Of a stretch of DNA of 57,195 bases, positions 6,886 to 45,881 are shown one piece after another; within the stretch, counting starts at the first letter, position 1, and every line of letters starts with the position of its first letter. A program made the translations under genes and the position numbers. Source of the stretch: a virus. Lineage: Duplodnaviria > Caudoviricetes. A model generated the notes under the pieces. That model was not told the origin of the DNA, made no database searches, and saw nothing but the letters and a program-made list of their open reading frames with translations. Location: the IMG/VR virus record IMGVR_UViG_3300016667_000411, positions 1 through 57,195 of that record; one strand, given 5' to 3'.

Positions 6886-7172
6886 CAGACCAAGATTTTC
6901 TCAAGCTGCTGCACGAGGTAGCTAAAAAAGCCAAGCCGTTTCACAACGAGCTTCTTCCGATTGAAACCATGGATCAAGAGCTGACTGACGTCGGCCTTGA
7001 CAGCCTAGACCAGCTGATGTGCACGGTCTACCTCTGCGAGATTTACGACGTGGAGGATGAGAAAAGCAAGGAGATGCTGGTCAAGACTCCACGCGAGTGC
7101 CTTGACTTCCTGACCCAGTGGGGTCGCCGACAGCCCTCGAGCCTCGAAGAGGCGGTTGGGATGATCAAATGA
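6882..7172 (+). CDS. Acyl carrier protein-like protein (96 aa)
   Basis: Small acidic protein with 'LTDVGLDSLD' phosphopantetheine-attachment motif; adjacent to a ketosynthase. Start taken at the ATGA overlap. Confidence 0.85.
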   Translation: MTDQDFLKLLHEVAKKAKPFHNELLPIETMDQELTDVGLDSLDQLMCTVYLCEIYDVEDEKSKEMLVKTPRECLDFLTQWGRRQPSSLEEAVGMIK

Positions 7173-8290
7173 GGATCTTCCTGACCTACGGGCGCACGGT
7201 GTCAACAGAGGACACCGAAATCTTCCAAAACCACCCGTTTCCGCAACGGATTCACTGGTTCAAAGACACTTATGCCCGGGTCAAGACCGGGCTTTTCTGT
7301 CCCCCTCATCTCGTAGCCGAAAAGATCCTGACTCCTGACACCCTGAAGACTCTTCGGGACACGCAGCCTGGCAAGACAGCCTTCCTTCTGGCCTCCGGGA
7401 ACAGCAACTTTGCTGCCGAGGGCCACAAGATGAAGGTCGAGAACGAGCTCTCGTACAACTACAAGATCCTCCCCCTGTCCCTGACCCAGATCTATGCTGG
7501 CAGGATTGCCGCGCAGTGCGGAGAGATTGACCACACGGCCACTGATGCCACCGCCTGCACCTCGAGCCTGAAGGTTTTGATGGACGTGCAGACCCTGATC
7601 AAGTTCTACGGTTTCGACAGGGTCATCGTGCTGGCCGTCGAGGACCAAGTCAACAACATGACTCTCCAGTTCTTTGGAGAAGCCAAGGCGACCCTGACAG
7701 AAAGCATGGCCGAGACTCACCAGGTGGTCCCCAGTGCATTCGATGGGCGCAACTTTGGGTTCTACATAGGCCAGGGTGCTGCATTGGCCGTATTTGAGTC
7801 AGAAGAGGCCGTCAAGCGCTCAGGGCTTGAGGTCACGGCTGAGCTGGTCTCGGCCTACACGGCCACCGAGGTCCTGACCAACACGATCGGCCAACGCGAA
7901 GACGGCCAGGGGTTTGTCAGGGCGATTAACGGAACGCTTGAACTTTGTCAAATTCGTCCAGAACAAATTAAAATCGTGAAGACTCATGGGACGGGGACAA
8001 AGTCCAACAACGCGGCCGAAAAAGCTGCTCTGGACTCCACCCTGAGTGGGTTTGTAGCGACATCGTATAAGCAGCGAATCGGCCATACGATGGGAGCGAG
8101 CGGACTCTTAGAGACCCTCTTGCTGTTCAAAGATTTGGAGAAGGGCATTGTGCCTGAGATCCTCAACCGAACAGAGAGGGACGACCGGTACCTCTCACAT
8201 CCTGTTGAGGCTCCGGATGGCATGGTGCTCAGTTTGAGTGCAGGCATGGGGAATGTCTTCAGCGCCGCACTGTTTAACGTGAGGATCTAA
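7169..8290 (+). CDS. Beta-ketoacyl-ACP synthase (FabB/FabF-like, 373 aa)
   Basis: Catalytic motifs 'TACTSS', 'HGTGT' and 'KQRIGHTMGASG', plus 'GQGAA' and 'SAGMG'. Confidence 0.92.
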   Translation: MRIFLTYGRTVSTEDTEIFQNHPFPQRIHWFKDTYARVKTGLFCPPHLVAEKILTPDTLKTLRDTQPGKTAFLLASGNSNFAAEGHKMKVENELSYNYKILPLSLTQIYAGRIAAQCGEIDHTATDATACTSSLKVLMDVQTLIKFYGFDRVIVLAVEDQVNNMTLQFFGEAKATLTESMAETHQVVPSAFDGRNFGFYIGQGAALAVFESEEAVKRSGLEVTAELVSAYTATEVLTNTIGQREDGQGFVRAINGTLELCQIRPEQIKIVKTHGTGTKSNNAAEKAALDSTLSGFVATSYKQRIGHTMGASGLLETLLLFKDLEKGIVPEILNRTERDDRYLSHPVEAPDGMVLSLSAGMGNVFSAALFNVRI

Positions 8291-19379: not shown

Positions 19380-19538
19380 GGTATTTCTAGGACCAAAACT
19401 AAGAGGATCAGTACAACCTGTTTTCGGTGCGCGCCATCTCCTGCTTTAGGAACGAGCGAACGATACTCTCTAGAGTTCTTTCTTGTACCAATACACTCTG
19501 TTTTCGTCCTAGAATTCATCTATAGGGGTTTTGGCTCG
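19365..19538. repeat. Palindromic non-coding element, copy A
   Basis: Arms 19365-19398 and 19501-19534 are reverse complements at 28/34 positions; the core matches 40514-40603. Confidence 0.9.
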
Positions 19539-19560
19539 CCTGGCCCTGGAGGCTGGTAAC

Positions 19561-19620
19561 TGTCCCAGCCCAAAAATTTTTGCAAAAAGCCGCGCGGTGC
19601 GCGGTTTTGCGCCCTATAAT
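19561..19620 (+). promoter_or_regulatory. Putative early promoter
   Basis: TATAAT at 19615-19620 upstream of an AGAAAGGAG RBS; the upstream ~55 nt resembles 34348-34407. Confidence 0.65.
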
Positions 19621-19665
19621 CGCATCAAGCACAGCGTGTTGCGGTGCTACCAGAAAGGAGAAAGT

Positions 19666-20652
19666 ATGTCGCACGAAGTCGAGACTATGGCGTATGCCAA
19701 TGAAGTTCCCTGGCACGGTCTGGGTGTTCCTGTTTCCTCTGACCTCACACCGGCCCAGATGCTGGATGCTGCAGGTCTCAACTGGCGCGTCGAGCGCAAA
19801 GGCCTTTGGGTCGATGGTGTTGACCACCTGCTGAACAGCCACTACGCGCTGGTTCGCGATACCGACCAGAAGATCCTTGGCGTCTGCGGTGGCGAGTATC
19901 AGCCCACTCAGAATGCCGACGTGTTCGAGTTCTTTGACCGGTTTTGCAAGGCCGGCGACATGAAGATGGAGACTGCCGGATCCCTGTCTGGCGGCAAGCG
20001 CGTCTGGGGCCTGGCCAAGATCAACGGCGGCTTCATGCTGGGCGGCAAGGACGAAGTCGAGGGCTACATCCTCCTCGACAACCCCCACATCTGGGGCCGC
20101 AGCCTGCAGATCCTGTTCACCCCGATCCGCGTGGTTTGCAACAACACCCTGACCGCAGCGCTCCGCAACAACACGAACCAAGAGAACACGTTCAGGATGT
20201 CGCACGACCGCGCGTTCGACGACCAGATCAAGCAGCAAGCTGCTGAGAAGGTTGGTTTGGCCATGAAAGCCCTGGACGTGTTCAAGGACAAGGCCGAGTT
20301 CCTGGCCGGCAAGCGCGCCAAGGACCAGAAGGTGCTGGAGTTCTTCAGCAACCTGGTGAACCCTGACCTCTACCAGACCGCTCAAGAGATGAGCGAGGAC
20401 GGTACCGTGAACCGTGCTGACCTTGGCCGCACAGTCAACAGGCTGTTCGACATCGTCAACACCCAGCCCGGTGCTGACCTCAAGACTTCTGCCGGTACCT
20501 GGTGGGGCGCCTTCAACGCCGTGACGTACTACTACGACCACGTCGCTGGAACGGATCAAGACAAGCGCCTGACAAGCGCGTGGTTTGGTTCGGCAGCTAC
20601 CCGCAAGCGCCAAGCTCTCGACCTTGCTGTCGAGTTCGCAGAAGCAGCCTGA
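19666..20652 (+). CDS. DUF932 / TIGR03299-like phage-plasmid protein (328 aa)
   Basis: 'PWHGLG', 'ETAGSL', 'TPIRVVCNNT' and 'GTWWGAFNAVT'; strong RBS before ATG 19666. Confidence 0.88.
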   Translation: MSHEVETMAYANEVPWHGLGVPVSSDLTPAQMLDAAGLNWRVERKGLWVDGVDHLLNSHYALVRDTDQKILGVCGGEYQPTQNADVFEFFDRFCKAGDMKMETAGSLSGGKRVWGLAKINGGFMLGGKDEVEGYILLDNPHIWGRSLQILFTPIRVVCNNTLTAALRNNTNQENTFRMSHDRAFDDQIKQQAAEKVGLAMKALDVFKDKAEFLAGKRAKDQKVLEFFSNLVNPDLYQTAQEMSEDGTVNRADLGRTVNRLFDIVNTQPGADLKTSAGTWWGAFNAVTYYYDHVAGTDQDKRLTSAWFGSAATRKRQALDLAVEFAEAA

Positions 20653-20715: not shown

Positions 20716-21576
20716 ATGGCAAACGCCAGAGGCAAGCACATCGACAACACGCACCTCAGCATCGACCAGGCTGAAGAACGCGGCTTCATCCATCGCGACT
20801 ACATCGCCCACTGTCTGCGCTGGACCCACGTGGCCAAGTGGATGGGCAAGCCAGAAAACCGACGCGACTGCAAGCTGCTCGACATCGGCTGCGGCAAGGA
20901 CGTACCACTGGCCAAGATGCTGATGACAAGCCGCTTGGCTTCTGACGGCCTTGAGTACATCGGCATTGACTACAACAAGCTCGAGATGCCCAAGGCCTTC
21001 GAGAACACCAAGTTCAAGCCCACCCTGATTGGCAACGTGGCCTTCCCAGACTGCCAGCTGCCCCATGAGAAGTTCGACGTCATCACATGCTTCGAGGTGC
21101 TGGAGCACGTCGAGCCTCTGCACGCCTACAAGATGATCGAGGGGATCCGTGACCGCCTGTCCGCTGACGGCATGGCCTTCATCAGCACCCCTGTCTACGA
21201 CCCCAAGGTGGGAGCAGCTGACAACCACGTCAATGAGATGACCTACGAGGTCATGCAGGTCTTGCTGCACAAGGCAGGACTGCAAGTTGATGCTCACTTT
21301 GGCACGTTCGCCAGCATCAAAGACTACAAGGAGATGATTGAAAAAGATGACTTGGATGCAATCTTCAGCCGCCTGCGTGATTACTACGACAGCAATTACC
21401 TGGCAACTATCTTTGCCCCGCTCTATCCCCACCGCGCTCGCAACGTGCTGTGGCGAGTCAAGCTGCCCAATACAGCGGAGATGTTCGAAGCTCCGAAGCT
21501 TGCTGGACTTACTCAACCACTCTCCAGCAGCGACCAATGGCAACCCCTCTTTGATTACCTTGGAGAAGGAGCGTGA
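20716..21576 (+). CDS. Class I SAM-dependent methyltransferase
   Basis: 'LLDIGCG', 'GIDY', 'FDVITCFEVLEHV' and 'ISTP'. Confidence 0.88.
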   Translation: MANARGKHIDNTHLSIDQAEERGFIHRDYIAHCLRWTHVAKWMGKPENRRDCKLLDIGCGKDVPLAKMLMTSRLASDGLEYIGIDYNKLEMPKAFENTKFKPTLIGNVAFPDCQLPHEKFDVITCFEVLEHVEPLHAYKMIEGIRDRLSADGMAFISTPVYDPKVGAADNHVNEMTYEVMQVLLHKAGLQVDAHFGTFASIKDYKEMIEKDDLDAIFSRLRDYYDSNYLATIFAPLYPHRARNVLWRVKLPNTAEMFEAPKLAGLTQPLSSSDQWQPLFDYLGEGA

Positions 21577-22145
21577 ACGTGAGCCAGCTTAACAACAGCA
21601 TCCAGTTCAACATGCCTCAGCAGGGCGACCTTCCCACAGAAGTGCTTCGCCTTGACAAGGACGGTTTTCACCTGAATGGTGAGCTCATTGAGGACGGCGG
21701 CAGGGCCTACGTGCTCTTCATGGAGTGGCTCGATTGGGCTCACTCCGAAGTCAAGCCAGACCTCTTTGGCATGGTGGCTGCCTTCCATCAGAAGTACGGG
21801 CTGCAGCCGACAAATGGTCCTGACTTTCCTGTCGAGGACATCTGGAAGCTCAAGAACCTCCACATGCAAGAAGAGCTGGACGAGATCAGAGCCAGTGCGA
21901 TCAACGGAAACCTTGAGGAGTACTTTGACGGCCTGATTGACCTGATCTACGTCGCCCTCGGGGCTGCTTACCTGGCAGGCCTACCGTTCAACGAGGGATT
22001 CAGGCGGGTCCACGAAGCCAACATGAAAAAGATCAGGGCAGAGAGGCCAGAAGATAGCAAACGCGGATCCGCCTATGATATAGTGAAACCTGAGGGATGG
22101 CAGCCACCGACGCTGACCGACCTCATCAGAAAGGAGAAAGCATGA
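21573..22145 (+). CDS. MazG-like / PRA-PH nucleotide pyrophosphohydrolase
   Basis: 'EELDE...DGLIDLIYV...VHEANMKK...IVKPEGW' all-alpha NTP-PPase pattern. Confidence 0.85.
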   Translation: MNVSQLNNSIQFNMPQQGDLPTEVLRLDKDGFHLNGELIEDGGRAYVLFMEWLDWAHSEVKPDLFGMVAAFHQKYGLQPTNGPDFPVEDIWKLKNLHMQEELDEIRASAINGNLEEYFDGLIDLIYVALGAAYLAGLPFNEGFRRVHEANMKKIRAERPEDSKRGSAYDIVKPEGWQPPTLTDLIRKEKA

Positions 22146-23152
22146 AAGGTTTAGTCGTCATTGACGGCTGCGATGGGACTGGCAAGACAACGCTTGCCCA
22201 AGCTCTTTGCAAGCGCTTCAATGGTGTCTACATGCACAACACCTACCGCTGGCCGAAGAAGATGCCGCTGTATCACACAGCAGCCCTTCATCGTGCACTG
22301 AAGCTGTCGCGTGAAAGGCTTGTCGTCATCGATCGCTTGTGGATGAGCGAAGCCATCTATGCCGACGTGTATCGTGGTGGCAGTCCATGGCCTCACATGG
22401 GTCGCATCATGGACCGCATCGTGCGTCGCTTCTGTGGCCTGTACATCATCACCCAATCTCCCAAGGGTCATCGCGAGCGCTTTGAGGAACTGAAGTCAGA
22501 GCGCAAGGAGATGTACGACGACGTCGACCAGGTGCGCATCCGCTTTGACATGCTGTTCGAAGGTGGCTTTGACGTTCACGATCGCGACTATGCACAGCAG
22601 CTGTCTGTCCATGGCATGCGCCATCGCAACGACGTGCTCCCCTATCGCTACGACGTTGAAGGTCAAGACCTAGACATCTACTGCGACATGGTGGCCTCTG
22701 TCATCGAGAATCGCCAGATGCGTCAGCTGCCAGAAGCCTTGCGCCTCGAGCACGAGAACTTTGCTGGCTACCTTGGCGAAGCGAAGATCATCTTCGTTGG
22801 CGATCAAACCAACAGCAAGCTTCGCGCGATCAACTGGCCGTGGTACGACTTCGGCAACAGCAGCGAGTTCTTCGCAAGCCACTTGCATGACATGCTGTTC
22901 GATGAGCAGCAGGCCATCTACATCAACGCCAACAGCCCCAACGGCGGCTTGCACATCAATGATTGCTTGCGCATGCAGCCATTCTTGAAGGTCATCGCGC
23001 TTGGTGAAGCAGCTAGCAAGACCCTGAGCTACTACTGCCTCGTCAAGCATCAGACCATCATGCATCCGTCGTACGCCAAGCGATTCAACAAGGCCAGCGA
23101 ATTCAAACAACAACTTCAAGGAGCCGTCAATGCAGTCCTCCAACAGCACTAA
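22142..23152 (+). CDS. dNMP kinase-like P-loop protein fused to a UDG-superfamily-like domain (336 aa)
   Basis: 'DGCDGTGKTT' and 'IDR..SE..Y' kinase motifs; C-terminal 'IIFVGD', 'VIALGEAA' and 'HPSY'. Confidence 0.75.
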   Translation: MKGLVVIDGCDGTGKTTLAQALCKRFNGVYMHNTYRWPKKMPLYHTAALHRALKLSRERLVVIDRLWMSEAIYADVYRGGSPWPHMGRIMDRIVRRFCGLYIITQSPKGHRERFEELKSERKEMYDDVDQVRIRFDMLFEGGFDVHDRDYAQQLSVHGMRHRNDVLPYRYDVEGQDLDIYCDMVASVIENRQMRQLPEALRLEHENFAGYLGEAKIIFVGDQTNSKLRAINWPWYDFGNSSEFFASHLHDMLFDEQQAIYINANSPNGGLHINDCLRMQPFLKVIALGEAASKTLSYYCLVKHQTIMHPSYAKRFNKASEFKQQLQGAVNAVLQQH

Positions 23153-23927
23153 TGTGGCGTGGCAATCGCTGCTTCACATGGTCATGAAGCACGGCCATGA
23201 GACCAGTCCACGAGGCCAGCGGACCAAGGAGCTGCTTGGCATCAAGTCCACAGTGGACATGCGAAACCCCGTCATCACCATCAAGGAGCGCAAGCTTGGC
23301 TACAAATTCATGGCTGCTGAAGCCGCTTGGATCATGTCTGGCGACAACCGTGTCAAGACGATCGCGCCGTACAGCAAGGCCATCAGCAACTTCTCTGATG
23401 ACGGCATCTTGTTCTTTGGCGCCTACGGACCACGCATTCGGGATCAGCTGGGCCATGTGGTCAAGAGCTTACGCGACGACAACGATTCGCGTCAAGCCGT
23501 CATCACCATCTGGCGCAGCAACCCCCGTCCATCAAAAGACATCCCTTGCACCATCAGCTGCCAGTTCATGATTCGCGGCGGCAAGCTGCATTGCTTCATG
23601 AACATGCGGTCGAGCGACGTGTGGCTTGGAGTTCCGTACGACTGGTTCAACTTCAGCATGTTGAGCCTTGGCGTCTGCTTGCTGCTCCGTGATGTTGGCG
23701 TCAACGTCACGCCAGGTCTGCTTCACTTCTACGCTGCCAGCCAACACATCTATGAGCCCAACTTCGAGGGCGCAGAGCAGTGTCAGGACGGCGAGATTCT
23801 TGGTTCAACCAGGCTCTTCAACATCGAGGAATTCATCGACTACGACCATCTGGTCACAAGTCTTTGGGCCATTGCCGATGGTCAACTACCTTTGATCTTG
23901 GAGAACCGCAATGTCAAGGATGACTAA
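23130..23927 (+). CDS. Thymidylate synthase homologue, probably dCMP-directed (hydroxy)methylase
   Basis: 'GAYGPR', 'SRQA', 'DIPCT', 'MRSSDVWLGVPYD' and 'SQHIYE'; Asp at the ThyA Asn177-equivalent position. Confidence 0.85.
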   Translation: MQSSNSTNVAWQSLLHMVMKHGHETSPRGQRTKELLGIKSTVDMRNPVITIKERKLGYKFMAAEAAWIMSGDNRVKTIAPYSKAISNFSDDGILFFGAYGPRIRDQLGHVVKSLRDDNDSRQAVITIWRSNPRPSKDIPCTISCQFMIRGGKLHCFMNMRSSDVWLGVPYDWFNFSMLSLGVCLLLRDVGVNVTPGLLHFYAASQHIYEPNFEGAEQCQDGEILGSTRLFNIEEFIDYDHLVTSLWAIADGQLPLILENRNVKDD

Positions 23928-24345
23928 AGATGAGTACTTTTCGAACATGGCTCAACTCGTCAGTCGGCGAGCTACGTGCGCGCGGAGGTCTGTTGGCTGC
24001 GTACTTGTATCTGGTCGTGGGCATGTGCTCGCTACTGGCTATAACGGCCCTCCTAGTGGCAGTGATCATTGCATCGATTCTCCTTGCCCCGGCGCATCTT
24101 ATCCGTCGGGCGCTGGACTGGAACGATGCGAGGCGATCCATGCGGAACAGAACGCTCTACTCCAATGTCGAGACATCTTCCAAATCGAAACGGCGTATGT
24201 GACCACGTTGCCTTGCATGACATGCATGAAGCTGCTGCTGAACACCAGCTGCAAGCGAATCGTGTACCTGCAAGACTATCCCCATCAAGAAGCAAAAGAA
24301 CTTTGGACACGCAATGGACGCGAACTCATACAGGCCGCCATCTAA
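23911..24345 (+). CDS. dCMP deaminase
   Basis: 'TCARRSVG', 'TGYNG', 'HAEQNA' and 'PCMTC'. Confidence 0.92.
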   Translation: MSRMTKDEYFSNMAQLVSRRATCARRSVGCVLVSGRGHVLATGYNGPPSGSDHCIDSPCPGASYPSGAGLERCEAIHAEQNALLQCRDIFQIETAYVTTLPCMTCMKLLLNTSCKRIVYLQDYPHQEAKELWTRNGRELIQAAI

Positions 24346-26176
24346 CTTTCCCGACCTCAGCAAGGCTGGTCGCATCGCAATCGACTGCGAGACGCGTGAC
24401 CCCAACCTGATGACCAAGGGTCCTGGTGGCGTGCGCCGTGACGGGTACATTGTGGGCTTCTCTGTTGCGACAGACGACGGCTTTGCAGAGTATTTCCCCG
24501 TGCGTCACGAGGCTGGTGGCAACCTGAATCCTGAGAACGCCTTCGCTTGGTTGAAGGACCAGATGAAGACAGACGTGCCGAAGGTTGGGGCCAACATCCC
24601 ATACGACTTGGAATGGCTGCTGACAGAGGGCGTCAAGGTCAATGGGCCCAAGTACGACGTGCAGGTTGCCGAGCCGCTGCTCGATGAGGACCGCATCACC
24701 TACAAGCTTGATGCCTTGGCTGAGTCATACCTCGGTGAGCACAAGGACGAGTCTCGCATGATCGAGGCAGGGGTACGTCGTGGCATCAAGCCAGCGGAGA
24801 TTAAGGGAAACCTCTGGCGGCTGCATGCCGGTGAGGTGGCCGACTATGGCCACAAGGACGCCGACCTGCCGATCCGTATCTTCGCCCAGCAGGAAGTCTT
24901 GCTACACGACGAGAAGCTCTGGGACCTGTTCATGCTGGAGACCCAGATCATTGACGTGCTGGTCGCGATGCGCCAGAAGGGAGTTCGCGTCGATGTCGAC
25001 CTCGCCAAGCGCGTCAAGGCTCAGTTACTTGACGAGCAAGAGCAGCTGATGGACAAGCTGAAGAAGGTTGCAGAGCGGTCCATAGACATCTGGTCTGGTG
25101 ACGATATACAGGCAGCCTGTGATGCTCTGAAGCTGGATTACCCAAAGACTGAAAAGGGGAATGCGAGCTTTGCTGCTGAGTTTCTTGAAAGTGCTGATCA
25201 TGAATTTTTCTCCTTGATTTCGAAGGCCCGCAAGCTTGACAGGGCCGGTGGAGTATTTATCGACAGCAAGATCATTCAGATGGAAAGCAACGGCCGCATC
25301 TATCCTGAGTGGCGTCAGGTGCGGAACGACAAGGGTGGTACCAAGTCAGGTCGCTTTGCGTCTGCGAACCCGAACATGCAGCAGGTCCCAGCTAGGGATC
25401 CGGTGCTGGCTCCGCTGATTCGCTCGATCTTCATCCCTGAAGATGGCCACCAGTGGGGCGTGTTCGACTACTCTCAGCAGGAGCCTCGTGTCACCGTGCA
25501 TTACGCCTACCTGCGGGGCTTTGCAGGAGCTGAGGCAGCCCGCAAGCGCTACATTGAGAATCCAGACACGGACTATCACCAGCTCGTCGCAGACATGGCT
25601 GGCATCAAGCGCAAGGAAGCGAAGTCGCTGAACCTGGGCTTGGCATACGGCATGGGGAAGGCTAGGGCTGCTAGCCAACTGGGTCTGCCACCAAAGGAAG
25701 CCGAGAACGTCTACAACCAGTATCACGCCAACGTGCCGTTCATCAAGGCGCTTGGCGAGGAGTGCACGCGCATCGCTACCAACCGCGGCTACGTCAAGAC
25801 GCTGCTGGGACGGCGCCGGAGGTTCCAGCTGTTTGGGCCACCAAAGTACAGCCCTGGCCTGATCCCACTCAGGAAGGACTTGGCTGAAGAGAAGTACGGG
25901 CTGCCGCTCAAGCGGTACTTCGTCCACAAGGCCATGAATGCCGTGATTCAAGGATCGTCGGCAGACATGATCAAGCAGGCGATGGTGAACCTGTTCAAGA
26001 AGGGCGAGGTCCCGCATCTGACGATCCATGACGAATTGGACTTCAGCATCCGTGACCTTGATCATGCAAGGATGATTCGTGAAGAGATGCTCACATGCGT
26101 GGATTTAGAAGTGCCATTGAAAGTAGACTGCGAACTTGGTTCAAACTGGGGGAACGCAGTGGAGGTTCAGCTATGA
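24314..26176 (+). CDS. polA: Family A DNA polymerase (3'-5' exonuclease + polymerase)
   Basis: 'IDCET' exonuclease motif, 'SGRFASANPNMQQ', 'DYSQQEPR', 'KSLNLGLAYG', 'IQGSSAD' and 'IHDEL'. Confidence 0.96.
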   Translation: MDANSYRPPSNFPDLSKAGRIAIDCETRDPNLMTKGPGGVRRDGYIVGFSVATDDGFAEYFPVRHEAGGNLNPENAFAWLKDQMKTDVPKVGANIPYDLEWLLTEGVKVNGPKYDVQVAEPLLDEDRITYKLDALAESYLGEHKDESRMIEAGVRRGIKPAEIKGNLWRLHAGEVADYGHKDADLPIRIFAQQEVLLHDEKLWDLFMLETQIIDVLVAMRQKGVRVDVDLAKRVKAQLLDEQEQLMDKLKKVAERSIDIWSGDDIQAACDALKLDYPKTEKGNASFAAEFLESADHEFFSLISKARKLDRAGGVFIDSKIIQMESNGRIYPEWRQVRNDKGGTKSGRFASANPNMQQVPARDPVLAPLIRSIFIPEDGHQWGVFDYSQQEPRVTVHYAYLRGFAGAEAARKRYIENPDTDYHQLVADMAGIKRKEAKSLNLGLAYGMGKARAASQLGLPPKEAENVYNQYHANVPFIKALGEECTRIATNRGYVKTLLGRRRRFQLFGPPKYSPGLIPLRKDLAEEKYGLPLKRYFVHKAMNAVIQGSSADMIKQAMVNLFKKGEVPHLTIHDELDFSIRDLDHARMIREEMLTCVDLEVPLKVDCELGSNWGNAVEVQL

Positions 26177-26574
26177 AGGAAAGCCAGTTCTGGGCTCTCG
26201 TCAAAGGCAAGCTGCTGGGCGACGTTGAGCGCATGGAGAACGCTTTGACTAGGGGGACTCCTGACGTCAACGGTTGCTTTGAGGGCCATGAGTATTGGCT
26301 GGAGCTCAAGGTGCTGGATGACAAGGGCCGTTGTGAGTTGCGTCCTGAGCAGTACCTGTGGCATCGCAAGCGTCAGGAGCATGGTGGCCGCGTGTTTGTC
26401 CTGGCCCGCAACGACAATCTCCTGAAGCTGTATCAGGTGCAGAGGAACATGGAGATGCACGAGCTGTGGGCGTGCTCAAAGCCGTTCCAATGGGACAACA
26501 TGAATAGCCTGATTTTTTCCGTTCCTCCGTTTTGCACGGAGATGAAGGTCATCCACTGTGGAGAGATGCAATGA
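26173..26574 (+). CDS. PD-(D/E)XK nuclease (resolvase / VRR-NUC-like)
   Basis: 'GTPDV...WLELK...LRPEQYLW...GGRVFV'. Confidence 0.8.
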   Translation: MKESQFWALVKGKLLGDVERMENALTRGTPDVNGCFEGHEYWLELKVLDDKGRCELRPEQYLWHRKRQEHGGRVFVLARNDNLLKLYQVQRNMEMHELWACSKPFQWDNMNSLIFSVPPFCTEMKVIHCGEMQ

Positions 26575-26891
26575 CAGTTTACGTCGTACAAGAGAGCCCG
26601 AAGTTCAACATCCTGCCTGCTGCAGAGTATGGTGAGCTGAAGACACTACTGCCGCCTGGTCAGGTTACCCTGTCCACGGCCCCAACGATTCGAGCGCTGC
26701 GTGACAAGCTGCGTTCGTTCTCGGACAGCGATTTCCTGCTGGCTATTGGTGACCCCATTGCCATCGGTTTGTCCGTAGCGGTTGCCGCCAATTTCAACGG
26801 TGGCAAGATCAAGATGCTCAAGTGGGATCGCCAAGAGCATCGTTACTACGCCATTGAGGCGGATTTGAATGGAGTCAGAGCAAATGCTTGA
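26571..26891 (+). CDS. Hypothetical protein (106 aa)
   Basis: ATGA overlap; 'VYVVQE...DFLLAIGDP...LKWDRQ'. Confidence 0.75.
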   Translation: MTVYVVQESPKFNILPAAEYGELKTLLPPGQVTLSTAPTIRALRDKLRSFSDSDFLLAIGDPIAIGLSVAVAANFNGGKIKMLKWDRQEHRYYAIEADLNGVRANA

Positions 26892-27435
26892 AGACATGTT
26901 GGCCGACAGTCGATCAATGCCAAGCGATGACGGTCTGAAGAAGATCAGTCGTTTAGCCGAAGCCTTGATTGACAAGGAAGAGGAGATCAAGGAAGCGGAG
27001 ACGCGACTGAAGATCATGAAGGAACAACTGAAGGACATCGCAGAAAAGCAGCTGCCAGATGCGATGGCCGAGGTTGGGATGGCGAAGTTTGCGCTCACTG
27101 ACGGCAGCGAGGTGACCGTCAAGCCGTACTACTCCGCCAAGATAGGTGATGAGAAGCGTGAGGAGTGTTTTGGCTGGTTGCAAGACCATGGCCACGAAGC
27201 ACTGATCAAAGACGAGGTCTCGATCGCCTTTAATCGTGGAGAGCATCAGAAAGCCGAGGAGTTCAAAGCCCAGCTGGAACAGCAAGGCATCGAATACTCT
27301 GGCAAGATGGGTGTTCACCCACAGACTTTGACGGCATTCGTCAGGGAACAAGTGGAAAGCGGTGCCGAATTTCCACTTGAACTTTTCAACGTGTACATCG
27401 GCCAAATTGCTAAAGTGAAAAGGAGCAAAGCATGA
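26869..27435 (+). CDS. Conserved replication-module protein
   Basis: N-terminal coiled coil and 'VHPQTLTAFVRE'; precedes the SSB-like gene. Confidence 0.7.
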   Translation: MESEQMLEDMLADSRSMPSDDGLKKISRLAEALIDKEEEIKEAETRLKIMKEQLKDIAEKQLPDAMAEVGMAKFALTDGSEVTVKPYYSAKIGDEKREECFGWLQDHGHEALIKDEVSIAFNRGEHQKAEEFKAQLEQQGIEYSGKMGVHPQTLTAFVREQVESGAEFPLELFNVYIGQIAKVKRSKA

Positions 27436-28199
27436 GCAAGAAGAATGAGGTGGCTGTGCAGCAGCCGAACCTGCCCGTCGCATTTGCAGACGACATGATG
27501 GCCGATGCAGGACTCGGCTTCGAGAACGTCAGCGCCAACGACGTTGCAATCCCGTACCTGAAGATCCTTCAGGCACTGTCTCCGGAGTTGCGTGGTCAGA
27601 CCAAGGTCCCCGGATCGGAAGAAGGCCTGGTCATCAACACCGTGACGCAGCAGCTGATGAAGGAGTTCCGTGTCATCCCCTGCGCATTCAAGAAGAGCTA
27701 CGTCGAGTGGACTCCTCGTGAAGCTGGTGGTGGTTTGGTCAAGGAGCACATGGATGAAGCCATTCTGTCCAAGACCAAGAAGAATGAGCGCAACCAGGAC
27801 GTGCTGCCCAACGGCAACTTGATCGTCACGACCTCCTACCACTACGTGCTGGTCTTGACTGAAGGCGGCTTCGAGCGCGCTGTCATGGCCATGAGCTCGA
27901 CGCAGCTGAAGAAGAGCCGTCGTTGGCTGGGCCAGATGATGGGCCTCCAGGTCCGCGTTGGCGACAAGTCGTTCACTCCTCCGCCGTTCAGCCACAGCTA
28001 CCATGTGGGAACCGGCATGGAGACCAAGGACACCAACAGCTGGTTTGGCTGGATCATCAACGATCCGGTCATGATCACTGACAAGAACCTGTACGAGACC
28101 GCCAAGAAGTTCGGTCAAGACGTGACCGCAGGCCTTGTGAAGGTTGCCGAGCCGCCGCAAGACGGCGTGGTTGAACCCGAAGACGAAGTGCCGTATTGA
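27432..28199 (+). CDS. Putative single-stranded DNA-binding protein
   Basis: 'IPYLKILQALSP', 'MSSTQLKKSRRW' and an acidic tail ending 'EDEVPY'. Confidence 0.6.
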   Translation: MSKKNEVAVQQPNLPVAFADDMMADAGLGFENVSANDVAIPYLKILQALSPELRGQTKVPGSEEGLVINTVTQQLMKEFRVIPCAFKKSYVEWTPREAGGGLVKEHMDEAILSKTKKNERNQDVLPNGNLIVTTSYHYVLVLTEGGFERAVMAMSSTQLKKSRRWLGQMMGLQVRVGDKSFTPPPFSHSYHVGTGMETKDTNSWFGWIINDPVMITDKNLYETAKKFGQDVTAGLVKVAEPPQDGVVEPEDEVPY

Positions 28200-28445: not shown

Positions 28446-28745
28446 ATGAAGTTCGGAGACGCAATCGAGGCCCTCCAGAAGGGCTTCAGGGTCACTCGAG
28501 AGGGTTGGAATGGCAGAGGCATGTTCCTTGTGCTTGCAGGTGGCTACAAGGTCAAGAAGGAAGACCTGAGGCCTGGTGGTCCTATCAACGCAGCCTTCCT
28601 CGAATCCCGGGGGCTGGAGGAGATGGAGATCCTGCCTCACATCGACATGTGGACAGTGAATGCTCACGGCAGGCAAGCCTACCTTCCTGGTTGGTTGGCT
28701 TCGCAGACAGACATGCTGTCAGACGATTGGATGATCGTCGAGTAA
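28446..28745 (+). CDS. DUF2829 / Tad2-family protein (anti-Thoeris sponge family)
   Basis: 'FGDAIEAL..G.RV.R.GWNG.GMF' and 'GWLASQTDMLSDDW'. Confidence 0.88.
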   Translation: MKFGDAIEALQKGFRVTREGWNGRGMFLVLAGGYKVKKEDLRPGGPINAAFLESRGLEEMEILPHIDMWTVNAHGRQAYLPGWLASQTDMLSDDWMIVE

Positions 28746-42531: not shown

Positions 42532-45069
42532 ATGGCTGAACAAGACAACCAAGGCGAATACGTCGAACTCCCGGACGAGGACAGCGATGTCGAAGACACC
42601 GAGGATGGTGGCGCACTGGTCACGCTCGACACGTCAACGCCGCCTGGTCAGACCGAGTTCTACGCGAACTTGGCTGAGTCAATGCCAAGCTGGGAGCTAT
42701 CGAACCTTGGCACCAGCCTTGCTGAGCTGATCGAGAAGGACAAGGAAGCTCGCAAGCGTCGCGACGAGCAATACGAAGAAGGCCTGCGCCGCACGGGCCT
42801 CGGTGATGATGCCCCAGGCGGTGCGTCATTCACTGGCGCCAGCAAGGTCGTTCACCCGATGCTGACTCAGGCATGCGTGGACTTTGCTGCTCGCGCCATG
42901 AAGGAGATCTTCCCGTCTGACGGACCGGCCAAAGAGAAGATCATTGGCGAGCCCACGCTTGAGAAGGTCGAGAAAGCCCAACGCATCACGCGCTACCTGA
43001 ACTGGCAGATGACCAAGCAGATGCCTGAGTTCAGGGCAGAGCTTGAGCAGCTCATGACGCAGCTGCCATTGGGTGGTGGTCAGTATCTCAAGATCACTTG
43101 GGACCCGAACAAGAAGCGTCCGGTCCCGATGTTCGTGCCCATCGATGACGTGTACCTGCCCTTTGCAGCGACCAACTACTACACGTCTGAGCGCAAGACC
43201 CATGTCCAGTACCTGACCAAGATCGAGTACCAGAAGCGCGTCGATGCAGGCATGTACCTTGACGTCGACCTGCGTGTTGACCCGATGCCTCCTGAGGAGT
43301 CCAAGGCCCAGAAGGCCAACGACAAGATCGAGGGACGAGCCTCCACTGGTTACAACGAAGACGGCCTGCGAGTCGTGTTCGAGTGCTACGTGCTCATGGA
43401 CATTGGCAATGGCGACGGCTTGGCTCCGTACATCATCAGCATCGACAAGAACACGCAGCGAATCCTGAGCATCTATCGCAACTGGGAAGAAGAGGACGAG
43501 ACCAAGCAGGAAATGTACTGGATGGTCGAGTTCCCGTTCGTGCCTTGGCGCGGGGCTTACCCGATCGGCATGATCCACATGATTGGTGGCCTGTCAGCTG
43601 CGGCCACTGGAGCCTTGAGAGCGCTGCTCGACTCAGCCCACATCAACAACTTCCCTGGCCTGCTGAAGCTCAAGTCAGGAGCTGGCGGCCAGACAGACCG
43701 TGTTGACCCAACCGAGGTCAAGGAGATTGAAGGCAGCTTCGGTGCTGACGACATCCGCAAGGTCCTCATGCCGATGCCGTACAACCCGCCAAGCCCAGTG
43801 CTGTTCAGCCTGCTCGGCTTCTTGGTTGACGCCAGCCAACAGGTCGTCAGGACCACGTTCGAAGAGCTGGCCGACAGCAACGCCAACACCCCAGTCGGTA
43901 CAACCCTTGCCCGCCTTGAGCAGGGCATGGTCGTGTTCTCAGCCATCCATGCTCGCATGCATGATGCCATGGCTCGCGTGCTGAACCTGCTGTTCCGCCT
44001 GAACAAGACCTACCTTGAAGAATCGGAAGTCATTGACGAGACTGGCGAGCTGCTGGTCCGCCGCAAGGACTTCGAAGGCCCGATGAATGTCGTGCCTGTC
44101 TCTGACCCCAACATCTTCAGTGAAGCCCAGCGCTTTGCCCAGGTGCAGGCCGTCATGGCCCGAGCCGAGAAGATGCCGCAGCTCTACGACATCCGCAAGG
44201 TCGAAGAGATGTTCCTCGAGCGGCTCAAGATCCCGCAGGGCAAGGACCTGCTGGCTCCGAAGCAGCAACCGCTTGAGCTGAACGCAGTGAACGAGAACAT
44301 TGCGGCCACGATGAAGCGGCCAATTGTCGCTTTCCCTGAGCAGGACCACCTCGCCCACTTGCAGGTGCACCTGGACTTCATCACGAACCCCATGTTCGGC
44401 GGCAACAAGATCATCGGCATGCAAGCCGTGCCGTTCTTGCTGGACCACATCAAGGAGCACATGGTCCTGTGGTACGCCAACCAGATCTTCAACGAGGCCT
44501 CTGACGCAGCCCAAGTCGACATCGGCGAGATTCAGAAGGACGCGACCACCGAAGAGAAACAGGCCCTGGACCGCATGCTGGCAGCAACCAGCCAAGTGGT
44601 CAACAAGCAGGCGCAGGAGACGTTCAGCGAGATTCCTGCCATCATCCAGCAGACCATCGAGATGCTGCAGCAGATGCAGCCGCCGCCTCAGATGCCTGCA
44701 GATCCTCGCGTCGAGGTCATGAAGCAACAGGTCGAGCAACGTGCTCAGAAGGACCAGGCAGATGCCCAGTTCAAGCAGCAGAAAGCCCAGACCGATGCTC
44801 AGCTCAAACAGGCCGAGATGCAACTTCGCAGCCAAGAGCGTCAGATGGCCCTGCAGCAACAGATCCAGACGCTGCAAGCCGAGCTGCAACGTGAGCAACT
44901 GCGTCAGTCTGCCGAAGACCAGCGCACACGGGCCGAGATCGAAGCGCGCTTGGCCATGAACGAATCCGACAACCAGACTGCCAAGCAACTGGCAGCTCTG
45001 GAGATTGCGTCGGGCAACCGAGTCGGTGTCTCAACAGGCACAGGCATCAACCCCAACCCACGTCCATAA
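42532..45069 (+). CDS. Portal protein
   Basis: 845 aa directly after terL; 'HPMLTQACVDF', 'PVGTTLA' and a long C-terminal coiled-coil barrel. Confidence 0.9.
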   Translation: MAEQDNQGEYVELPDEDSDVEDTEDGGALVTLDTSTPPGQTEFYANLAESMPSWELSNLGTSLAELIEKDKEARKRRDEQYEEGLRRTGLGDDAPGGASFTGASKVVHPMLTQACVDFAARAMKEIFPSDGPAKEKIIGEPTLEKVEKAQRITRYLNWQMTKQMPEFRAELEQLMTQLPLGGGQYLKITWDPNKKRPVPMFVPIDDVYLPFAATNYYTSERKTHVQYLTKIEYQKRVDAGMYLDVDLRVDPMPPEESKAQKANDKIEGRASTGYNEDGLRVVFECYVLMDIGNGDGLAPYIISIDKNTQRILSIYRNWEEEDETKQEMYWMVEFPFVPWRGAYPIGMIHMIGGLSAAATGALRALLDSAHINNFPGLLKLKSGAGGQTDRVDPTEVKEIEGSFGADDIRKVLMPMPYNPPSPVLFSLLGFLVDASQQVVRTTFEELADSNANTPVGTTLARLEQGMVVFSAIHARMHDAMARVLNLLFRLNKTYLEESEVIDETGELLVRRKDFEGPMNVVPVSDPNIFSEAQRFAQVQAVMARAEKMPQLYDIRKVEEMFLERLKIPQGKDLLAPKQQPLELNAVNENIAATMKRPIVAFPEQDHLAHLQVHLDFITNPMFGGNKIIGMQAVPFLLDHIKEHMVLWYANQIFNEASDAAQVDIGEIQKDATTEEKQALDRMLAATSQVVNKQAQETFSEIPAIIQQTIEMLQQMQPPPQMPADPRVEVMKQQVEQRAQKDQADAQFKQQKAQTDAQLKQAEMQLRSQERQMALQQQIQTLQAELQREQLRQSAEDQRTRAEIEARLAMNESDNQTAKQLAALEIASGNRVGVSTGTGINPNPRP

Positions 45070-45241: not shown

Positions 45242-45442
45242 GTGTTCGACCGGATCTTCGCAAAGATCGACGCCGAGAAGGCGCGCATTGCTCATGAGGC
45301 CATGGCGCAGAAGTTCGGCGAAGGCAAGGACATCAGCTACGAGACAGGCAGACAGCAGGGCGTGTACGCAGGCCTTGACAGAGCCAAGCAGCTGATCGAG
45401 CAGCTTTTGCGAGATCAAGACGAGCGTGACTCAAAACTTTGA
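45242..45442 (+). CDS. Hypothetical protein
   Basis: Small helical ORF 'Y....G...GL..A' upstream of the GroES-like gene. Confidence 0.7.
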   Translation: MFDRIFAKIDAEKARIAHEAMAQKFGEGKDISYETGRQQGVYAGLDRAKQLIEQLLRDQDERDSKL

Positions 45443-45461
45443 ACAGCATACGGAGAAGCGA

Positions 45462-45881
45462 ATGCTACTTGAAAACCCCATCAGCCTTTCCTACGACTCA
45501 CTTGATGACGCGTTCCCTGCGGTCGATCCTGGCATAGTCCCCTTTGGCAGCCGCGTCATGGTTCAAATTCGTAGGGCCAAGGACCGCACGAAATCCGGCA
45601 TCTTCATCCCTGAAGAGGCCCGCAAGACAGAAGCCAGCAACACCCAGGTCGCCAAGGTCGCGGCCATTGGACCGTTGGCTTACAAGAATCGGAACACCAT
45701 GGAGTCCTGGCCCGAGGGCAACTGGTGCAAGATCGGGGACTTCGTCCGCACCCCGAAATATGGCGGCGATCGCTGGACTGTCAAGTTCAACGACGAGGAG
45801 ATTGAGTTCGTGATCTTCAACGACCTGGACATCATTGGCAAGGTCACAGCAGATCCGACCACGATCAGGGCATTCATCTAA
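45462..45881 (+). CDS. groES: GroES-like co-chaperonin
   Basis: 'PFGSRVMVQ...TKSGIFIP...KVAAIGP...GDFV...KYGG...NDLDIIG'. Confidence 0.88.
   Translation: MLLENPISLSYDSLDDAFPAVDPGIVPFGSRVMVQIRRAKDRTKSGIFIPEEARKTEASNTQVAKVAAIGPLAYKNRNTMESWPEGNWCKIGDFVRTPKYGGDRWTVKFNDEEIEFVIFNDLDIIGKVTADPTTIRAFI

Follow-up and report, generated by a model that had tools for sequence, protein, structure and literature searches.

A phage operon with a gp42-like thymidylate synthase homologue, a linked methyltransferase and a kinase fused to a uracil-DNA glycosylase-like domain suggests T4-like replacement of cytosine

The IMG/VR virus record IMGVR_UViG_3300016667_000411 (Duplodnaviria; Caudoviricetes) carries at 20716-24345 (+ strand) an operon for nucleotide metabolism built around a thymidylate synthase (TS) homologue, which we analyzed here as a candidate pathway for modifying cytosine in phage DNA. 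The stretch analyzed ("the window") is the whole record, 57,195 bp with a completeness rating of 100%, and its large open reading frames (ORFs) lie on the + strand. The operon consists of five successive overlapping genes, encoding an S-adenosylmethionine (SAM)-dependent methyltransferase (MTase), a MazG-like nucleoside triphosphate (NTP) pyrophosphohydrolase, a dTMP-kinase-like domain fused to a uracil-DNA glycosylase (UDG)-like domain, the TS homologue, and a zinc deaminase, and is followed by the gene for the DNA polymerase PolA (Table 1). This agrees with the first-pass annotation, made from the sequence alone, which had described five overlapping genes running directly into PolA. From the MTase gene to PolA, the successive overlaps are 4, 4, 23, 17, and 32 nt, and a GGAG-type ribosome-binding site lies 5' of each of the five operon genes (none was found 5' of PolA). 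The ORF of the kinase fusion opens at 22097 and the gene ends at 23152; its start is most likely 22142 rather than the first ATG at 22097, because homologues are 330-336 aa long and a GGAG site is present.

Table 1. Genes and domains of the operon and its immediate neighbors, with the best supporting match
Feature	Position	Strand	Support
DUF932 protein, upstream of the MTase	19531-20652	+	PF06067, E 7e-46
Class I SAM MTase, 286 aa	20716-21576	+	PF13489, E 1.6e-13
MazG/PRA-PH (phosphoribosyl-ATP pyrophosphohydrolase) all-alpha NTP pyrophosphohydrolase, 190 aa	21573-22145	+	PF01503, E 4.4e-10
dTMP-kinase-like domain of the fusion	22142-22717	+	P-loop GCDGTGKTT; fold match
UDG-superfamily (family-4-like) domain fused to the kinase	22718-23152	+	Fold match; Pfam UDG in relatives
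TS homologue, 265 aa	23130-23927	+	PF00303, E 1.8e-23
dCMP/dCTP-type zinc deaminase, 144 aa	23911-24345	+	PF00383, E 1.2e-20
PolA, family A DNA polymerase with 3'-5' exonuclease domain	24314-26176	+	PF00476, E 4.3e-58; PF01612, E 2.7e-6

The TS homologue is a member of the TS superfamily, with a PF00303 score of 83.5 bits (cut-off 24.3) and with C146, R21, R126, and R166 all kept. Its translation contains the motif RSSDVWLGVPYD, whose last Asp falls in the column of E. coli ThyA Asn177, both in a HMMER alignment to S. aureus TS and in a MAFFT alignment with E. coli ThyA. An Asp in place of the ThyA Asn had already been read from the sequence, together with the rule that ThyA has Asn at this site and T4 dCMP hydroxymethylase Asp; the two alignments confirm the residue, and the rule is correct and in use in the literature (PMC8670742; PMC13326640). 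We then compared the active site with those of E. coli ThyA, RB69 td, T4 gp42, RB69 gp48, SPO1 gp29, the SP10 TS homologue, and the enzymes of phages PaMx74 (NC_028809) and AXL1 (OL674541), the last two serving as 5-methylcytosine (5mC)-type stand-ins for the Xp12 enzyme; the intron-split halves of T4 td were left out. SPO1 gp29 and the SP10 homologue were labelled dUMP hydroxymethylases in this analysis. In E. coli ThyA numbering, residues 143/146/147/165/169/177 of the window enzyme are D-C-T-M-D-D, which is identical to T4 gp42, a 5-hydroxymethyl-dCMP (5hmdCMP) synthase. The pattern is L-C-H-Q-D-N in ThyA and RB69 td, N-C-P-L-D-D in PaMx74 and AXL1, E-C-T-M-N-D in RB69 gp48 (a 5-hydroxy-dCMP synthase), and D-C-N-N-D-N in SPO1 and SP10. 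Asp143 of the window enzyme thus stands in a column that is Asp in T4 gp42, and it also aligns with an Asp of MilA in a pairwise alignment. According to published residue rules, N177D gives a dCMP substrate (PMC13326640; PMC8670742), an acidic residue 143 accompanies a hydroxymethyl product, and D169N marks 5-hydroxy-dCMP synthases (both PMC13326640), and by all three the window TS is a predicted dCMP hydroxymethylase (5hmdCMP synthase). It further keeps R126 and S167, as deoxyribose-specific enzymes do (PMC5175136), and its best sequence match in the PDB is the CMP 5-hydroxymethylase MilA (E 1.4e-22), ahead of the best ThyA (E 2.4e-16).

A quick maximum-likelihood (ML) tree of TS sequences, from which the rows L014_1, L070_1, and L041_1 (truncated) had been removed beforehand, placed PaMx74 and AXL1 with ThyA (SH-aLRT, the Shimodaira-Hasegawa-like approximate likelihood ratio test, 96) and the window enzyme apart from them in a 66-row clade (SH-aLRT 99). 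T4 gp42 had a branch length of 6.09, and RB69 gp48 sat on a separate long branch. These data bear on two of the other explanations of the operon. The one that we consider the least probable, and hardly credible, is ordinary nucleotide salvage, in which the deaminase feeds a true dUMP thymidylate synthase, a dTMP kinase follows, and the DNA has only canonical bases. The automated names "thymidylate synthase" and "thymidylate kinase" agree with such a route, and the pathway of the cultured Stenotrophomonas phage AXL3 (see below) was so described in its paper (PMC7504290); however, the ThyA residues Asn177, Leu143, His147, and Gln165 are all replaced in the window enzyme, and all eight NCBIfam ThyA equivalogs score far under their cut-offs (at best 70.8 versus 327 bits). 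Scarcely more probable is that the enzyme, like RB69 gp48, makes 5-hydroxy-dCMP, with 5-hydroxycytosine in the DNA as an acceptor for further groups. The two share D177, T147, M165, and an acidic residue 143, but the diagnostic D169N (PMC13326640) is absent, with Asp169 found in the window and in 69 of 73 kinase-linked relatives, and gp48 branches separately in the tree. Also at odds with this explanation, no glycosyltransferase Pfam family was matched among the 58 window ORFs scanned, just as none had been recognized in the first-pass annotation.

The genes around the TS homologue could act in one pathway with it. The MazG protein scored 40.3 bits against PF01503 (cut-off 21.3) and matched phrog_671, nucleotide pyrophosphohydrolase, at E 1.1e-22; we infer that it acts as a dCTPase, with specificity for dCTP, and MazG homologues adjoin the TS in AXL3, AXL1, and PaMx74. 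The deaminase scored 73.7 bits against PF00383 (cut-off 25), carries the HAE and PCxxC zinc motifs in its translation, and matched phrog_174, dCMP deaminase, at E 3.6e-38, while its score against the ComEB equivalog was 89, under the cut-off of 219; its sequence is compatible with dCMP or with 5-hydroxymethyl- or 5-methyl-dC nucleotides as the substrate. In an AlphaFold2 model of the fusion protein (45 sequences; predicted local distance difference test [pLDDT] score 93.8), residues 1 to ~195 aligned to dTMP kinases and to B. subtilis YorR/BSU20280 with VIA-align Z scores of 13.0-13.6, which places the domain in the P-loop nucleoside monophosphate kinase fold. All matches to the dTMP kinase families of Pfam and NCBIfam were weak and under the curated cut-offs (PF02223, 24.9 versus 27 and over the P-loop only; TIGR00041, 29.9 versus 83.25), and in this setting the domain is a putative 5-hydroxymethyl-dCMP (5hm-dCMP) kinase.

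Phage T4 replaces its cytosine through gp56 dCTPase, gp42 dCMP hydroxymethylase, gp1 deoxynucleoside monophosphate (dNMP) kinase, and cd dCMP deaminase, and the same four activities (dCTP removal, dCMP hydroxymethylation, dNMP kinase, and dCMP deaminase) are predicted for the window. Reading together the gene content, order, and overlaps, the domain folds, the active-site signature, and the conservation of the cassette in related viruses, we infer all substrates and the final base as follows. The MazG-like pyrophosphatase would convert dCTP to dCMP, clearing the competing nucleotide and supplying the next step; the TS homologue would transfer the methylene group of methylenetetrahydrofolate (CH2-THF) onto C5 of dCMP, followed by hydration to 5-hydroxymethyl-dCMP; the dTMP-kinase-like domain would phosphorylate 5hm-dCMP, and the host nucleoside diphosphate kinase would complete 5hm-dCTP; and the adjacent PolA would incorporate it, so that 5-hydroxymethylcytosine (5hmC) or a derivative replaces cytosine. 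Like T4 cd, the deaminase may turn some of the dCMP into dUMP, which the host thymidylate synthase would then use. We therefore regard the operon as probably a T4-like pre-replicative pathway, and the phage DNA as probably carrying 5hmC or a derivative in place of cytosine. Of the two alternatives left by the first-pass annotation, the first, a modified cytosine supplied through the kinase with the pyrophosphatase removing the competing dNTP, is thus the better supported, and the gp42-like signature narrows it from either 5mC or 5hmC to the latter.

The window pathway is functionally the T4 scheme, built of unrelated or distant proteins ahead of PolA. As in T4, where gp1 has this role, the TS is paired with its own dNMP kinase, and the signature D143/T147/M165/D169/D177 is identical in gp42, but identity to gp42 over the whole protein is just 22%, the window MazG protein has no T4 match, and the kinase profile gives marginal T4 P-loop matches (E 0.005 and 0.015). 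Unlike T4, the window has no phage td/ThyA, ThyX, or glucosyltransferase, and its genes form one overlapping operon that additionally includes the SAM MTase and the UDG-like domain on the kinase.

The five-gene cassette is also present in two cultured phages, AXL3 (gp31-gp27) and Pseudoxanthomonas phage PW916, in the order MTase, hydrolase, long "thymidylate kinase," TS, and dCMP deaminase. Their TS enzymes are 49% identical to the window's and share its signature, and the AXL3 kinase matches the profile of the fusion over positions 4-319, whereas MTase identity is ~33%, PolA is not adjacent, and, unlike the window, both phages encode ThyX, so that dTMP synthesis does not depend on their TS homologue. 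The cassette is misannotated in both: its genes are named as an ordinary dTMP pathway. The AXL3 modification is known from restriction resistance. AXL3 DNA resisted 35 of 37 restriction enzymes and was cut just by TasI and Tru1I, which have A/T-only sites (PMC7504290). The presence of ThyX in AXL3, and the resistance of its DNA to enzymes with G/C in their sites, argue further against the ordinary salvage route. T4-like replacement of cytosine in these phages predicts that the G/C-modified base of AXL3 derives from 5hmC rather than 5mC, and the two cultured phages make a direct chemical test possible.

The remaining explanation is the system of Xp12 and the Pamexviruses, which consists of a 5-methyl-dCMP (5mdCMP) synthase, a MazG-type pyrophosphatase, a 5mC-selective deaminase, and a dihydrofolate reductase (DHFR). 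In PaMx74, cytosine is wholly replaced by 5mC (bioRxiv 10.1101/2024.12.05.627091), and AXL1 is closely related to Xp12 (PMC9206674). Applied to the window, the TS would make 5-methyl-dCMP, 5mC would replace cytosine, and the deaminase would turn part of the 5mC pool into thymidine nucleotides, with neither dUMP nor a separate TS required. The second alternative of the first-pass annotation, in which methyl-dCMP is deaminated to a thymidine nucleotide, is thus a real and published route (bioRxiv 10.1101/2024.12.05.627091), but the signature disfavors a methylating TS, and we consider it unlikely for the window, though far from implausible. The two systems have in common an Asp177 TS, a neighboring MazG homologue (shared by the window, PaMx74, and AXL1), a deaminase in cis, and the aim of complete cytosine replacement. 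Moreover, no ThyX, second TS, or other source of dTMP was found in the window, a record rated 100% complete, and ThyX was matched in just 5 of 44 related records, in 4 of them over the cut-off. TS-D177, PRA-PH, dCMP deaminase, and PolA were also the families that MetaGPA found to co-localize in modified-cytosine contigs (PMC8670742; bioRxiv 10.1101/2024.12.05.627091), and the window operon has the same families in cis. In that setting, 5 of 7 TS enzymes tested made 5mdCMP, and a linked deaminase showed selectivity for 5mdCTP (bioRxiv 10.1101/2024.12.05.627091).

Several differences speak against an Xp12-type pathway. At positions 143/147/165, the window enzyme has D/T/M, equal to T4 gp42, versus N/P/L in PaMx74 and AXL1, and the latter group with ThyA, off the window's clade, in the quick tree. 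The MazG homologue occurs in PaMx74 and AXL1, but neither phage gave a match to the window kinase at E<=1, and no MTase of the window's family was seen beside the TS in the AXL1 gene list. DHFR is encoded beside the TS in AXL1 (PMC9206674), and none was found in the window; since hydroxymethylation yields tetrahydrofolate (THF) (PMC5175136), and so regenerates it, no DHFR would be needed, which fits a hydroxymethylase. The ThyX of the AXL3 subclade would be redundant in an Xp12-type pathway. Finally, KpnI and Eam1105I partly cut the presumed-5mC DNA of AXL1 (PMC9206674) but not the DNA of AXL3 (PMC7504290) in work from the same laboratory.

On the other side, a number of points weigh against T4-like replacement by 5hmC in the window. 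The residue-143 rule was called a correlation by its authors (PMC13326640), and it is imperfect in our own comparison, as the 5mC-type enzymes of PaMx74 and AXL1, which here represent the Xp12 enzyme, have Asn143 and not a bulky hydrophobic residue. Overall identity of the TS is uninformative, at 22% to T4 gp42 and 27% to PaMx74. The phylogeny proposed as a check in the first-pass annotation did set the window's clade apart from ThyA, but its grouping with gp42 did not emerge, as the window's clade, T4 gp42, the SPO1-type, and the RB69 gp48-type enzymes formed an open polytomy in the quick tree. The window lacks ThyX and a second TS, a deaminase in cis with a sole TS is also the Xp12-type layout, and most of the deaminase-linked D177 enzymes assayed in bioRxiv 10.1101/2024.12.05.627091 (the 5 of 7 above) were methylating.

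Having weighed these explanations, we evaluated how far the cassette extends beyond the window. A profile of the kinase fusion found 213 relatives in IMG/VR, of which the best 80 loci were taken; a profile of the MTase found 190 relatives, and the best 80 added 78 new loci, 65 of them extending 3 kb or more past the downstream end of the MTase gene. The kinase-seeded and MTase-seeded sets share contigs and contain near-duplicates, and their counts are thus not independent. Among the kinase-seeded loci, D-C-[T/S]-M-D-D was found in 69 of 73 TS rows, and the four exceptions are a canonical ThyA (in a jumbo phage), an N143 variant, a gp48-like enzyme, and a truncated row. A TS was found by hidden Markov model (HMM) search at 66 of the 78 MTase-seeded loci, each time (66 of 66) with the gp42-like pattern, even where identity to the window TS is only 25-31%; the 12 loci without a TS match include several cut near the MTase. 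By tblastn, MazG lies directly downstream of the MTase at 61 of the 65 longer loci, with the TS at 56, the deaminase at 59, and the kinase at 43; PolA follows the deaminase at 42 of the 65, and the DUF932 protein lies upstream of the MTase at 31. For TS homologues, at least 2019 clusters were found at E<=1e-10.

The cassette is abundant in environmental viromes. For the window's own version, at least half of the sampled words from the stretch 20716-26176 were found in 8 further runs, which were freshwater, aquatic, wastewater, and shrimp-gut metagenomes from several studies. Three of the related IMG/VR loci also deserve mention. Locus L016, a 222,710-bp contig of a jumbo phage, encodes two TS homologues, one L-C-H-Q-D-N and one D-C-T-M-D-D, beside a fused kinase and an MTase homologue. 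The TS of L077 reads E-C-T-M-N-D, a predicted 5-hydroxy-dCMP synthase, and adjoins a 446-aa kinase ORF, and that of L036 has Asn143 in an otherwise gp42-like pattern.

The fusion of the kinase to a UDG-like domain had been suggested from the sequence alone, and the AlphaFold2 model and the fold matches now bear it out. Residues 193-336 aligned over 139 residues to the family 4 UDGs 4zbx and 1ui1, with a VIA-align Z score of 12.8 and root-mean-square deviations of 2.9 and 2.6, respectively, and the top Foldseek match of the domain was the T. maritima UDG 1l9g (E 3.9e-5). Sequence matches are sparser: Pfam UDG (PF03167) was matched at E<=1 by 8 of 15 relatives of the C-terminal domain (best E 3.9e-5) and not by the window's copy, and a PDB sequence search with the profile of this domain returned two chance-level matches only (E 0.42 and 0.53). 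The UDG relationship thus rests on the predicted fold and on the Pfam matches of relatives. A 15-sequence alignment revealed two conserved blocks, VG(D/E)..N.K...WP(F/W)...NSS and HP(S/A)..RF, whose G(D/E) and HP motifs correspond in position to motifs A and B of UDGs. Family 4 UDGs bind a 4Fe-4S cluster through four conserved Cys, and the window domain has the alpha/beta fold of this family but not the four Cys; no invariant or nearly invariant Cys was seen in the 15-sequence alignment.

The UDG-like domain was always fused to the kinase and was never encoded apart from it in 160 related loci. The MTase was present at 35 of 41 loci with a fused kinase versus 13 of 38 with a short kinase (Fisher p 3e-6, relatedness ignored). 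A strict requirement of the MTase for the UDG-like domain was rejected, as 20 of the 78 MTase-seeded loci have a TS without this kinase family within reach. The MTase, which is strictly linked to the gp42-type TS, and the UDG-like domain, with its invariable fusion to the kinase, are both part of the pathway. We found no report of a UDG-kinase fusion in the literature searched.

The MTase contains the motif LLDIGCGKD, and its AlphaFold2 model has a pLDDT of 87.2. Foldseek returned generic small-molecule and RNA class I MTases only, and the matches from Foldseek and the PDB profile search comprised UbiG, protein-lysine MTases, Hen1, cap N7-MTase, CmoM, and sugar and phosphoethanolamine MTases, such that the modelled fold, a generic class I fold, points to no particular substrate. 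The family is virus-specific, with clusters that are 95-100% viral, and comprises 1632 homologues at E<=1e-5; mean column identity is 55% over 43 sequences. The MTase is constantly partnered by the gp42-like TS and the MazG protein, and from these the most economical idea is that its substrates are hydroxymethyl-dC nucleotides, or else 5hmC within DNA. We tentatively suggest that it may methylate 5hmC, as nucleotide or in DNA, to give a methylated 5hmC derivative such as 5-methoxymethylcytosine, and that the UDG-like domain may be the base-recognizing module of the pathway. This suggestion, which we consider possible rather than probable, comes from gene linkage only.

No report of a natural DNA base of the 5-methoxymethylcytosine type, and no description of an MTase of this family acting on modified cytosine, was found in the literature searched. 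The words "methyltransferase" and "kinase" do not occur in the MetaGPA main text (PMC8670742), and in the accessible sections of bioRxiv 10.1101/2024.12.05.627091 "methyltransferase" refers to Dcm, DNMT3a, and enzymes of archaea, and "kinase" to T4 gp1. The core of the cassette is therefore already known, and the linked MTase and the kinase-UDG fusion are, as far as the literature was searched, undescribed. They are also its least explained and most interesting parts, and the first-pass annotation had given a role to neither. Complete replacement of cytosine is a main route by which phages escape restriction and other DNA-targeting defenses, and it is a source of reagents for epigenetic sequencing. 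If the MTase modifies 5hmC, this would extend the known natural DNA bases by one and bring with it a novel enzyme activity, and the size of the MTase family implies that such a base would be widespread.

The phage as a whole has no close cultured relative: Megablast of the first 25 kb of the window against isolated phages gave only a 394-nt match, to Caulobacter phages. Downstream of PolA and a small resolvase/helicase-like ORF, a trio of Pam3 gp32-, gp33-, and gp34-like genes (PF23992, PF23984, and PF23977) occupies 26532-28199 (+). A 99-aa ORF at 28446-28745 (+) contains a Thoeris anti-defense 2-like domain (PF11195, E 2.8e-21) and is likely an anti-Thoeris sponge encoded within the replication module. 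At 45426-45881 (+), there is a Cpn10/GroES-like co-chaperonin gene (PF00166, E 8.2e-11), flanked by an 845-aa ORF at 42532-45069 with no Pfam match and by capsid-region ORFs. Lastly, a 390-aa ORF at 7118-8290 (+), amid virion and tail genes, matched the C-terminal (PF02801, E 1.6e-16) and N-terminal (PF00109, E 5.1e-8) domains of beta-ketoacyl synthase, which are unusual for the structural region of a phage.

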